The position numbers and the translations under genes were made by a program. DNA of 64,000 bases from assembly GCA_965227295.1 (NCBI GenBank), contig OZ245742.1, positions 3,168,001 through 3,232,000 of the forward strand, in the 5' to 3' direction. Within the stretch, counting starts at the first letter, position 1. Each line of letters starts with the position of its first letter. This DNA is from Leptonemataceae bacterium (GTDB lineage: Bacteria; Spirochaetota; Leptospiria; Leptospirales; Leptonemataceae). Shown here piece by piece: positions 10,706 to 49,925 of the stretch. Under the pieces are notes generated by a model. That model saw only the letters and a program-made list of their open reading frames with translations, made no database searches and was not told the DNA's origin.

Positions 10706-11671
10706 ATGATGTACTCACTTCCGAAGTTCGACGGCAATCGTAAGAATGGTCGGCCCGGTCGGGCGCTGATCGTCGAGGGCGGCGGCATGCGCGGGGCCTT
10801 CGCCGGCGGTGCCCTCGGCATGATGGGCGAGTTGTATCCGCCGGAGAACTACGACATCGTCATCGGCGTTTCCTCCGGGGCCTGTTCGGCCTCATACTAC
10901 GTCACGGAGAAGAACATCGACACGGCGCGGCGCAACAAGATCTTGCAGGTATGGCGCTACGAACTGGCGGGCAGCAAGCTCATGTCGTACCGCAACCTGC
11001 TCCGCGGTCGTCCGTTTTTGAATCAGGAGTATCTCATCGACGAACTCTTCGGCCGTCGTTATCCGGTAAAACGCGAGATCCTCGACGAAAAATCGACGAC
11101 GCCTTTTTACATCGTCGTGAGCAACATCAAGACGCTGCAACCCGAGTACCATCGCGCGCGCGGCGACAATCTCTTCAACTTACTCAAAGCCGCCACGTCG
11201 CTGCCCATCGCGACGAAGGGCCGCCGGCGCATCGGCGAGACGGAGTATACCGACGGCGGCGTGCTGGACCCGTTGCCGGTCCAGGCGGCCATCGACGCCG
11301 GTTACACGGATCTTACGGTCATCTTAACGAATCCGCGGACGCACGAGCAGGGGCGCATCGGGCCGTTTCTGAGTTTCATGTGTTTTCCCTGGGACGGCCA
11401 GGTGCAGCGCAAGTTGACGAAGGAGATGCACGTATTGCATCAACGTTCGTACAATCTCATCAACAATCCGCCGCCGGGCGTGCGCGTGCGCATCATCGAT
11501 CCGCGACACACCTTGCCGGCGCACATGCTGTCGACGAACGTCTTCTTGTTGCATCACACGGTGGAGATGGGTCTCGCCGCGGCGTTCGAGCTCTTCGGAA
11601 AAGAAAAACGCCGCAAAGGTTTCCTGGCAAGAATCCGCCGCTGGTTCGGCTTTCGGCCGTCTACGGCTTGA
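10706..11671 (+). CDS. Patatin-like phospholipase
   Basis: EGGGMRGAF, GVSSG nucleophile, YTDGG. Confidence 0.92.
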   Translation: MMYSLPKFDGNRKNGRPGRALIVEGGGMRGAFAGGALGMMGELYPPENYDIVIGVSSGACSASYYVTEKNIDTARRNKILQVWRYELAGSKLMSYRNLLRGRPFLNQEYLIDELFGRRYPVKREILDEKSTTPFYIVVSNIKTLQPEYHRARGDNLFNLLKAATSLPIATKGRRRIGETEYTDGGVLDPLPVQAAIDAGYTDLTVILTNPRTHEQGRIGPFLSFMCFPWDGQVQRKLTKEMHVLHQRSYNLINNPPPGVRVRIIDPRHTLPAHMLSTNVFLLHHTVEMGLAAAFELFGKEKRRKGFLARIRRWFGFRPSTA

Positions 11672-11684
11672 GAAAGATGGATGA

Positions 11685-11798
11685 GACTCCGAGCACCGAG
11701 GCACCGATGGAAGATTGGGAGAGCATTCGTATCTGAATGCATTCGGGCTATGAACGCTCTCTGATTTTTTTTAACTCGGTACCTCGGTCCTCGGAGTC
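11685..11798. repeat. Family A palindromic element (REPIN/MITE-like), copy 1
   Basis: Arms GACTCCGAGCACCGAGGCACCGA and CTCGGTACCTCGGTCCTCGGAGTC; central GAATGCATTC palindrome. Confidence 0.9.
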
Positions 11799-11810
11799 AA
11801 ATCCCGTCTT

Positions 11811-12857
11811 TCACCGCGCCACGCAGCGCACGCGATAGTTTCCGCCGTCCACCATCTCGCCCTCTCCCAGCCGGAAGTCGTAGATCATGCCGCGGCCGGA
11901 GAAGTTCATCGACGTCCAGTACTGATGCGTGCCCGTCGACCAGAAGAGACTGCGGTCGATGTACGGAGACGTTGCGTTCGCTTGAATCATCGTTTGCAGT
12001 TCGGTCATCTCCGGGAGACGCCAGGATTTCCCGCCGGCCTTGAGTGATGCGCAGTACTGCTGTGCCCGGGCCTGGGTCATGACGGAATCGCGTTCTTCGC
12101 CGCGGCAATTGCAGAGTTCGAACGTTTGCCCCGGCGCGCACTTCTGCCAGGTCAGTCCGCTGCTGTTGTCGACGACGAAACCGTTGCCGCGATCCACGTG
12201 ATTTCCGGAACGCAGCACGTCACACTTACCGCCCGCCTGGTAACGACTGAGGCCGACCAGAATCCAGCTCAAATCGGAGCCGCCGCTCACGTCGATGTAC
12301 ACCCCGCCGCCGGCTTCGGCGATGAGGCGCAGTTGTGCCTGGATCTGCGGGTCCACGGCGAAGCTGATGATGTGCACGACGATGTTCATGCCGGCGTTAC
12401 GCCACTTCGCCGCAACGGCCGCCGGATCGCCCTCGCAGGTTTCGAGGCCGTCGGTGATTACGATGATGCGATTGTCTTCGTTCGGGTTATGAAACTTCGC
12501 GCCGGCCGTATCGATGGCCAGGGCCAGCGGCGTGCTGCCGTCGGGTTCGATGCCCTGCACGGCCGAGGTGAGCCGGGACTTTGCGTTCAGGCCGCGATCC
12601 ACCGGGATGTTCGAAGTCACCCCGCAGGCTCCGTCCGACGGGAACGACAGAAAGGCAATGCCGCGGTCACCGGGAACCCAACTGAAGGTCGACTGCATGG
12701 CCGATCGCGCGACGTCGATCTTACGCACGTCGTTGGGCTGACCGCTGAGTGTCTCGGCCATCGATCCGCTGCGATCATAAACATAAACGGTATCCGCAAA
12801 GAGCGGTGCGCTGAAGAAAACAATAACGGTGAGCAGGGCGGGGAAGAAGGCGTTCAT
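11811..12857 (-). CDS. Secreted VWA-domain + DUF1566 (Lcl C-terminal) protein
   Basis: Signal peptide, MIDAS DRSGSM, TPLA, VITDGLETC; C-terminal D..SGLTWQKC..WRLPEMTEL..YWTS..VRCV. Confidence 0.85.
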   Translation of the reverse strand: MNAFFPALLTVIVFFSAPLFADTVYVYDRSGSMAETLSGQPNDVRKIDVARSAMQSTFSWVPGDRGIAFLSFPSDGACGVTSNIPVDRGLNAKSRLTSAVQGIEPDGSTPLALAIDTAGAKFHNPNEDNRIIVITDGLETCEGDPAAVAAKWRNAGMNIVVHIISFAVDPQIQAQLRLIAEAGGGVYIDVSGGSDLSWILVGLSRYQAGGKCDVLRSGNHVDRGNGFVVDNSSGLTWQKCAPGQTFELCNCRGEERDSVMTQARAQQYCASLKAGGKSWRLPEMTELQTMIQANATSPYIDRSLFWSTGTHQYWTSMNFSGRGMIYDFRLGEGEMVDGGNYRVRCVAR

Positions 12858-12916
12858 GCGTTCTTCTTCGGTTTTGAGAGGGAAAACTTAAGGTGGGTGG
12901 TGAGAAAGATGGATGA

Positions 12917-13029
12917 GACTCCGAGGACCGAGGTACCGGGTTTAAGAAAACGGAGAGTATTCACAGGCTGAATGCATTCGGATACGAATGCTCTCGTAAT
13001 CTTCCCTAGGCGCCTCGGTCCTCGGAGTC
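12917..13029. repeat. Family A palindromic element, copy 2 (core inverted relative to copy 1)
   Basis: Arms GACTCCGAGGACCGAGGTACC and GGCGCCTCGGTCCTCGGAGTC; its reverse complement aligns along the length of copy 1. Confidence 0.9.
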
Positions 13030-13039
13030 AAAAAATCTC

Positions 13040-30220: not shown

Positions 30221-30359
30221 AACTCCGAGGACCGAGGTGTCGAGGGAAGAAGAGTGAAATAGAAGGGTGTGCAGGCTATGTGAGCTTTCTTTGCCTGCTC
30301 GTATTCTGGTTACGAAAACCCTCCCTGGTCCTTGACTCGGTACCTCGGTCCTCGGAGTT
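30221..30359. repeat. Family A palindromic element, copy 3 (unrelated interior)
   Basis: Arms AACTCCGAGGACCGAGGTGTCGAG and CTCGGTACCTCGGTCCTCGGAGTT. Confidence 0.85.
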
Positions 30360-49687: not shown

Positions 49688-49820
49688 GCCACAGAGGCAC
49701 AGAGTGCACAGAGAAATTTACATGATGCGAATGCGGGCGGGCTAAGCCGGCTGTCGGTCGGGCGAGCGCGATCGTCCACCCCATCAAACGCAAACTCTGT
49801 GTCCTCTGTGCCTCTGTGGC
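49688..49820. repeat. Family B palindromic element
   Basis: 26-bp terminal inverted repeats, GCCACAGAGGCACAGAGTGCACAGAG and CTCTGTGTCCTCTGTGCCTCTGTGGC (24/26 match). Confidence 0.85.
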
Positions 49821-49925
49821 AAAAGGTTGCAGAGGCTCCCGCCAGATTCGTTCCGGAAGGCCCACCGTCAATCGAATGCTTTTTTCCTGGCGTTGTGGTT
49901 CGCGCACCGTTATAATGGAGGAAGT

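Follow-up and report, generated by a model that had tools for sequence, protein, structure and literature searches.

What places a single gene between two hairpin-forming elements that share an outer flank on the same strand but carry their cores in opposite orientations? The question is raised by a 64,000-nt stretch (the window) of the genome of a Leptonemataceae bacterium (Spirochaetota; GenBank assembly GCA_965227295.1, contig OZ245742.1, positions 3,168,001 to 3,232,000), in which a gene for a protein with VWA_2 and Lcl_C domains (the VWA gene) stands between two such elements. We refer to the hairpins around the VWA gene as E1 and E2 and to a third copy in the window as E3, and assign all of them to family-1, which is characterized by arms with CCGAGG units. 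Our analysis suggests, with a probability of roughly 0.7, that E1 and E2 are gene-less members of a family of which another copy, elsewhere in the genome, carries a gene for a GxxExxY/PDDEXK_3 nuclease. The host sequence is a single 5.94-Mb contig of 59.8% GC that contains the window, and its genes were called with a purpose-written simple codon-usage caller (4535 genes). The congeners mentioned below are the two other genomes of the genus, both of which are among the 30 relatives searched for the arm. Positions up to 64,000 are those of the window, and larger ones are those of the genome unless a congener is named.

Results

Two elements with opposite cores

An earlier note on this DNA, made from the letters of the window, described an exact 25-bp direct repeat whose first copy supplies the stop codon of a patatin-like gene and whose copies each run into a palindromic element. 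This description holds. The repeat is found at 11669-11693 and 12901-12925, with a spacing of 1232, and extends to 36 of 38 nt; TGA 11669-11671 is the stop of the open reading frame (ORF) 10706..11671; and a foldback of ~112 bp with 16-nt arms is present at both sites. The interior of the second element is indeed the reverse complement of the first (86 nt, 83% complementary), and the change of sides of GGAAGATT and AATCTTCC, like that of the T-run and the TTAA block, can be read directly in the sequence. The note went on to say that the flank is direct and the core flipped, which is correct for the flank; the arms, however, flip too, with positions 17-23 following the inverted relationship. 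What is inverted between E1 and E2 is the whole element, and the direct part consists only of the flank and the family-invariant start of the arm.

On either strand, the folds of E1 and E2 are much better than those of shuffled sequences (z = -7.7 to -8.9). Each E1 arm contains three CCGAGG heptamer units, and the window has six arm matches with up to three mismatches, against 0.29 expected. The only match in Rfam was below threshold, at 34.5 bits where the gathering score is 184; it was to a model of a plant microRNA hairpin and was set aside as a chance match of a long hairpin.

A nuclease-family gene between the same arms

As the earlier note stated, the window holds no recombinase. The note saw no candidate enzyme, but one with the same arms exists elsewhere in the genome. 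Annotation of the 17 genes flanked by elements on each side led us to a full-length family-1 unit of 588 bp at 1864372-1864959, 1.3 Mb from E1 and E2, which we call the nuclease cassette. Its gene, a 156-aa ORF at 1864426-1864896, lies 38 and 47 nt inside two mismatch-free arms and matches PF13366 (PDDEXK_3, E 9.7e-43) and TIGR04256 (GxxExxY, E 2e-44), with both scores far above the family cut-offs. The residues of the PD-(D/E)XK superfamily are present, and the catalytic triad (D98, E108, K110) and the GxxExxY motif are invariant in all 15 proteins compared. The gene-carrying unit is single-copy in the genome.

The 588-bp unit shares its flanks with the short copies, and its subterminal GGAAGAT..GGGAG segments as well. 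The left half of E1 aligns to the right end of the cassette (46/56 nt), as does the right half of E2 (43/56 nt), and the left half of E3 aligns to the left end of the cassette (54/62 nt). These alignments of halves to cassette ends, over 56-62 nt at 77-87% identity, form the pattern expected of internal-deletion derivatives.

Family-1 across the genome

A search of the whole genome with the 16-nt arm, allowing up to two mismatches, returned 286 matches (158 exact, 101 with one mismatch and 27 with two). Of these, 54 are single arms and the others form 116 inverted pairs with spans of 34-180 nt, the commonest being 109-113 nt, which puts the family at ~150 loci, with copies dispersed over ~143 spacers along the chromosome. 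A profile search with nhmmer gave 293 half-sites, 252 of them with E<=1e-3. With at most one mismatch, the arm has 259 matches in this genome and 0 in each of the 30 relatives, the two congeners included. A scan of contigs from unrelated genomes gave at least 78 matches, all single and at chance level, and the metagenome scan gave 0 matches to paired arms.

The terminal arms are inverted and 16-23 nt long. Each is built from three direct CCGAGG units at 7-8 nt spacing, is not self-complementary and has no GTAG or CGTC head. Conservation is 83-100% at positions 1-16 and 20-23 and weak further in or out. The cores are diverse: a relative covering at least 60% of the length exists for 38 of 105, and the top identity is 83%. 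E1 and E2 belong to the same core subfamily of seven members, at 82-84% identity. In two core relatives of E1, the bases linking the arm units have diverged while the CCGAGG units are kept. The flanks of a copy are not specifically complementary to each other (4.57 against 4.64 matches of 14, permutation p=0.69), so the outer-stem pairing seen in the E1 fold is not a rule of the family.

No long-range arm pair in the genome encloses a transposase gene; the only longer unit is the 588-bp nuclease cassette. The genome as a whole is repeat-rich: comparison with itself gives 3500 matches of 300 nt or more, several multi-copy segments (1.1-2.4 kb) resembling insertion sequences among them, and none of these longer multi-copy repeats contains family-1 arms.

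A second family, and heptamer arrays in relatives

The genome has a second PDDEXK_3 gene (978925-979269), and this gene too lies in a repeat-bounded unit, of 444 bp (978888-979331), whose borders are a 32-nt inverted repeat of CACAGAG-type units. The arms of this second family have 57 matches in the genome, including 10 short pairs of 100-197 nt, and the 444-bp unit is the only gene-carrying copy of the CACAGAG family. Gene-carrying units thus measure 444-588 bp and encode proteins of 139-156 aa; the two proteins are 46% identical.

Of the 31 genomes searched, 12 have PDDEXK_3 genes, with one to four copies each. When the flanks of 15 full-length GxxExxY genes from these 12 genomes were locally aligned, roughly 9-10 showed inverted repeats of short tandem units. 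Four or more CACRGAG doublets were found in seven of the 12 gene-bearing genomes, against none of the 19 that lack the gene (Fisher p=3e-4, with related genomes that are not independent). In relatives, the genes stand beside heptamer versions particular to those genomes. CACGGAT doublets number 148 in one congener, where the motif stands beside that genome's own gene, nine in the other congener and none here. In congener G001, CACGGAT elements often occur in tandem clusters (contig 2, ~138155-138666, 2145594-2146258 and 2177471-2177834), and one such cluster lies directly beside its single GxxExxY gene.

The nuclease-cassette reading of E1 and E2 has to be set against several observations that weigh the other way. 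Among the 15 GxxExxY genes, the inverted repeats in the flanks of five were weak (score <=20); on reading the flanks of five low scorers, we saw heptamer arrays beside three (CACGGAT, CACGAAA and CACAAAG). No pair of cores exceeds 83% identity, and hence there is no trace of recent copying. The conservation of the arm is partly an artefact of the search, since two of the six core relatives of E1 have diverged arms that the arm search missed. Direct repeats of 3-5 nt, as a target-site duplication would leave, are not above background at offsets 0-15; 2-nt direct repeats at offset 0 are weakly raised (12 of 116 pairs against ~4 expected). Finally, PF13366 is listed as of unknown function in a table of PMC3424549.

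If the family is what we propose, the heptamer arrays would be binding sites of the cognate nuclease, which, acting in trans, may once have spread the short copies or may still maintain them. The copies E1 and E2 are probably old and were probably placed independently.

The opposite cores and the identical flank

With symmetric ends, the orientation of an element is carried by its core alone, so two neighboring cores in opposite orientations need no special event; about half of all independent insertions of a symmetric-ended element are expected to come out this way. The flank is another matter. In the 5.94-Mb genome, the 17-nt flank has two exact occurrences, and allowing one mismatch adds no further one. 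Among 40,755 arm-flank pairs there is a single 17/17 match, that of E1 and E2, and the next best is 14/17, reached by six pairs; the match exceeds chance. Nor is the flank a conserved part of the family, as the five other members of the E1/E2 core subfamily have different flanks. Flank and arm start are identical at 25 of 25 positions, whereas the cores are 82-83% identical, so flank and core have different histories, whichever way the core is turned.

These numbers bear on the event that the earlier note had proposed, an inversion of the core between its arms. In such a scheme, E1 and E2 would be direct duplicates, flank included, of which one later had its core inverted in place by recombination or template switching. 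The geometry suits it: perfect inverted arms of 17 nt lie only ~80 nt apart, breakpoints would be located within the invariant arm portion, in agreement with arm positions 17-23 following the core, and the right-hand flanks of E1 and E2 are alike in core orientation. A duplication followed by a flip does not, however, account for 25 of 25 identical positions next to cores at 82-83%, given that 17 unbroken matches at 82% have a chance of ~0.03. E2 is also no closer to E1 than two distant copies are (83.3% and 83.0%), and a single form appears in the contigs of two sequencing runs, although rare variants are lost from contigs. We consider a flip in situ improbable and, for the opposite cores, not needed. 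The two runs come from one study; their contigs contain the E1-VWA-E2 stretch unchanged and may be its source, and a third run had no coverage of it; no RNA run is listed as containing the stretch. Apparent joints listed in the run contigs proved to be cross-matches to other copies of the family.

For the 25-bp identity itself (17-nt flank plus 8 nt of arm), we tentatively put forward, at slightly less than even odds, a short gene-conversion or break-repair tract between directly repeated arms of copies 1.2 kb apart. Such a tract could plausibly start from a break at the arm. Flank matches of at least 11/12 are found in two of 92 arm pairs less than 3 kb apart and in 22 of 40,547 distant pairs. 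The only other flank sharing between neighboring copies is at 1441941 and 1442994, where the elements around a syntenic ABC-permease gene share flank and arm (27/28 nt) as an inverted repeat facing the gene. Two points tell against conversion. Mean flank similarity is the same for near and distant elements (4.05 and 4.05 of 12), which means that the idea rests on two extreme pairs, and it is awkward that the tract would have to stop precisely where the stop codon lies, since past that point the two sites show no homology.

The VWA gene and other bracketed genes

The features of the locus and the related elements of the window are collected in Table 1.

Table 1. Parts of the E1-VWA-E2 locus and other foldback elements of the window.
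Feature	Position in window	Strand	Remarks
Patatin-like phospholipase gene	10706..11671	+	ORF; PF01734, E 1.3e-16; stop position close to that in congeners
Direct repeat, copy 1	11669..11706		TGA stop, 14-nt purine-rich outer flank and start of E1 left arm; 25 nt exact, 36/38 overall
E1, gene-less foldback element	11672..11810		Arms 11686-11701 and 11782-11797; occupies the entire spacer between the convergent patatin and VWA stops
VWA_2 + Lcl_C (former DUF1566) gene, 348 aa	11811..12857	-	PF13519, PF07603; C-terminus and stop conserved with congeners, locus not
43-nt leader from VWA start codon to direct-repeat copy 2	12858..12900		Start-proximal part resembles the upstream region of VWA in congeners (by eye, weak)
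Direct repeat, copy 2	12901..12938		Same 17-nt flank, its TGA terminating no gene here; then start of E2 left arm
E2, gene-less foldback element	12904..13039		Arms 12918-12933 and 13013-13028; right flank borders directly on the TAA stop of the following gene
TMEM43-like membrane protein gene, 350 aa	13040..14092	-	PF07787; convergent neighbor of patatin in both congeners
E3, third family-1 element	30222..30358		Same arms, unrelated core; between two minus-strand genes
Second-family gene-less foldback element	49688..49821		CACAGAG-heptamer arms; family tied to the second GxxExxY gene of the genome

In this genome the VWA gene lies at another locus than in either congener. In both congeners the patatin and TMEM43-like genes are adjacent and convergent, with spacers of ~146 and 220 nt that contain neither VWA nor an arm. 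The VWA orthologues of the congeners, 62-63% identical and with the same C-terminus, have two other genes as neighbors, whose orthologues are found here at 5703003-5703794 and 5705684-5706181. The interval between these, 5703795-5705683, which matches the VWA interval of the congeners, holds 1.9 kb of other DNA with no gene called. Synteny of the VWA gene in relatives without elements would have spoken against the earlier note; both congeners instead keep the gene elsewhere, with the patatin-TMEM43 spacer empty of any element.

The note had further suggested that flank, element and gene entered together as a cassette-like unit. Two parts of this stand, the lineage-specific place of VWA and the membership of the hairpins in a cassette family; transfer as one unit is not supported, and the cargo of the family is a nuclease gene elsewhere. 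[quoted passage not shown] It would fit the other locus of VWA in both congeners. It would also fit the number of genes with elements on both sides (17 against 4.5 expected at random), and the finding that VWA and an ankyrin gene, among nine bracketed genes compared with the congeners, lie elsewhere there, as does a pair of cNMP-binding genes beside an element. Of the same nine genes, however, six are syntenic in the congeners and one has no match. No duplication flanks the proposed unit, and the other VWA locus in this genome retains no remnant of an element. In a hand tally, synteny was broken in seven of 16 spacers with an element and in three of 17 without; the regions compared were picked for their richness in elements, so they give no fair background and no rate can be drawn from them. 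Outside the three genomes of the genus the VWA gene was not found, and outgroups give no polarity for its move.

The other two non-syntenic loci can be described briefly. The ankyrin/CAP-like gene (508 aa, 3295869-3297395; region 3295751-3298171) is bracketed by two family-1 elements and lies elsewhere in both congeners, and the corresponding junction in one of them carries an element of that congener's own CACGGAT version (contig 2, 5385508-5385746). Two tandem cNMP-binding genes (138 and 143 aa, 4004286-4005254), with an element at their 3' end, are likewise elsewhere in the congeners. The pair sits between a rhodanese-type gene and its convergent neighbor, a site that measures 27 nt in one congener and holds a different 0.85-kb insert in the other. 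The rhodanese ORF extends ~6 codons into the element flank.

A gene bracketed by two sites, with inverted conserved ends around a variable center of ~60-140 nt, also recalls an integron-like cassette, in which the hairpins would be attC-type sites for a tyrosine recombinase. The copies here are instead dispersed over ~143 spacers and form no array, the arms by eye look unlike attC core sites, and the four tyrosine recombinase genes of the genome, at 2.96, 2.99, 4.23 and 5.67 Mb, do not include one beside the E1/E2 locus. We regard this explanation as very remote.

Placement of the copies and origin of the flank

Copies of family-1 occupy short spacers at the ends of genes, typically 9-12 nt beyond a stop codon. 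A stop codon is faced by 160 of the 286 arms, most commonly at a distance of 9-11 nt, and none of the 116 pairs is enclosed by a called gene; 11 elements first classed inside genes turned out to be an artefact of the crude gene caller. By spacer context, the 105 placed pairs divide into 31 between two plus-strand genes, 39 between two minus-strand genes, 28 convergent and seven divergent. The last figure compares with a share of 18% of all spacers that are divergent (p=0.0009). When the arm-to-arm length is subtracted, the remaining spacer is about as long as ordinary spacers, whose medians are 37 nt for same-direction and convergent genes and 118 nt for divergent ones. E3 fills its whole spacer, 11 nt from the start of an oxidoreductase-like minus-strand gene and 12 nt from the stop of the next gene.

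Over the 12 nt adjoining each arm on its outer side, a purine-rich part gives way to a T-rich one and C is scarce, which is not so in the DNA that follows other stop codons. An empty site near 1442980-1443141 indicates where these nucleotides come from: a congener has a spacer of 1 nt between the stop and the next start, while this genome has 160 nt, made up of flank, arms and flank. It follows that the purine-rich outer flank came with the insertion. For VWA and for the gene at a second site, the native stop keeps a conserved position directly before the flank; at another site, the reading frame continues a few codons into it. We considered whether a stop triplet is a fixed part of the element and rejected the idea, because stop usage at elements (TGA 75, TAA 42, TAG 24) matches that of the genome and because flanks facing a start hold stop triplets in 57 of 91 cases, against 55.7 from base composition.

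This placement invites an explanation in which the elements are RNA hairpins at 3' ends, selected by the host as stabilizers, terminators or translation-coupled regulators much like repetitive extragenic palindromic (REP) sequences, and in which the link to the nuclease is incidental. The folds are very stable, the position 9-12 nt past stops is within reach of a terminating ribosome, promoter-bearing divergent spacers are largely avoided, and the arms are conserved while the cores drift. Against this, the better-folding strand is independent of gene direction: it is the plus strand in 10 and the minus strand in 13 of the plus-plus spacers, and in 16 and 14, respectively, of the minus-minus spacers. 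Neither E1 nor E2 is followed by a U-tract, and the gene-carrying copies and the genome-specific match of heptamer and gene would go unexplained. As a full account, this seems quite improbable, though a host role and a mobile origin of the elements are mutually compatible. The better-folding strand does show a bias relative to the replication strand (46 against 27, p=0.03), which is likely a by-product of GC skew.

Discussion

Taken as gene-less members of a nuclease-cassette family, E1 and E2 would have in common with the rest of some 150 loci a set of ends that also surrounds a single-copy gene elsewhere in the genome. An action of the encoded protein on the arrays would explain the ~150 hairpin-filled spacers at gene ends and the fact that close relatives share none of them, and possibly how genes such as VWA reach new places. 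For annotation, it is relevant that some genes have their stop codon and a few final codons in DNA that an element brought in.

A bolder version of the proposal deserves mention, although we think it unlikely. In it, the nuclease still cuts the arrays of the ~150 copies, and repair templated by other copies homogenizes the arms while the cores drift, occasionally drags the flank along when the template is a neighboring copy, which would give the 25-bp identity seen here, and relocates neighboring genes such as the VWA, ankyrin and cNMP genes. If this were true, the nuclease would drive concerted evolution and the shuffling of genes through the family, and each species would have its own recognition "dialect".

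The cassette gene is a clear member of the GxxExxY family (TIGR04256; PF13366), a widespread family that has no assigned function and here gains a concrete DNA partner. The candidate partner consists of inverted three-heptamer arrays, whose sequence differs between species and between paralogues. In two papers that name GxxExxY, PDDEXK_3, PF13366 or TIGR04256, the passages on the family contain no mention of repeats, and a passage in one of them refers to it in passing, beside a reverse transcriptase. The pairing of a GxxExxY nuclease with a repeat family of its own appears to be undescribed in the literature.

How, then, does the system compare with known ones? MITEs are similar in size: the sections on individual elements in the review by Delihas (2011, PMC3184786) give ~104-157 bp for Correia, ~127 for ERIC, 107 for RUP and ~130-170 for Nezha. 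As far as that account goes, the copies described here are similar in measuring 100-180 bp, ending in terminal inverted repeats, containing no ORF and lying between genes in many copies, and, as with MITEs and insertion sequences (IS), the short copies look as if internal deletion had derived them from a longer unit that has the same ends and carries a gene. They differ from MITE/IS systems in that no target-site duplication was detected here, and in that the single-copy unit of 444-588 bp encodes a nuclease-fold protein and no known transposase family. The same review, in the passage concerned, cites genes straddled by two MITEs, namely an integron mobilization unit (Poirel 2009) and MITE-flanked integrons (Gillings 2009). 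The VWA locus is similar to these, as they are summarized there, in having a gene between two small non-autonomous repeats and relatives without the gene at the locus. In those cases the flanking copies are identical and the unit was moved experimentally, in contrast to the VWA locus, where the cores are 82-83% identical and inverted and a transfer of the unit is hypothetical.

The second comparison is with REPINs, REP doublets that form hairpins, and their single-copy REP-associated tyrosine transposase (RAYT), in the outline given by the relevant parts of Bertels & Rainey (2011, PMC3116915) and PMC3337134. Measured against that outline, family-1 has much in common with REPIN/RAYT: hairpin doublets of ~110 nt in which a conserved short sequence surrounds a less conserved spacer; tens to hundreds of copies that are extragenic, rare in promoter spacers and lineage-specific; and one or two enzyme genes per genome, flanked by the same repeats. 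The enzyme is what sets it apart, having a PD-(D/E)XK (GxxExxY) fold in place of that of an HUH/Y1 transposase. A search of the genome for the Y1_Tnp family PF01797 gave 0 matches, so no RAYT-type gene was found, and the same search was positive in six of 14 control genomes. According to the definition quoted from PMC3733652, a REP unit is an imperfect palindrome with a GTAG or CGTC head; unlike such units, the arms here are three-heptamer arrays that are not self-complementary and have no head of this kind.

The system therefore resembles MITE/IS or REPIN/RAYT with a different enzyme fold, and membership fails on the enzyme and the REP head for REPIN/RAYT and on the target-site duplication for MITE/IS. 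If the protein acts on the arrays, the two together would constitute a class of enzyme plus repeat that runs parallel to RAYT/REPIN and IS/MITE and is built on the fold of a restriction enzyme.

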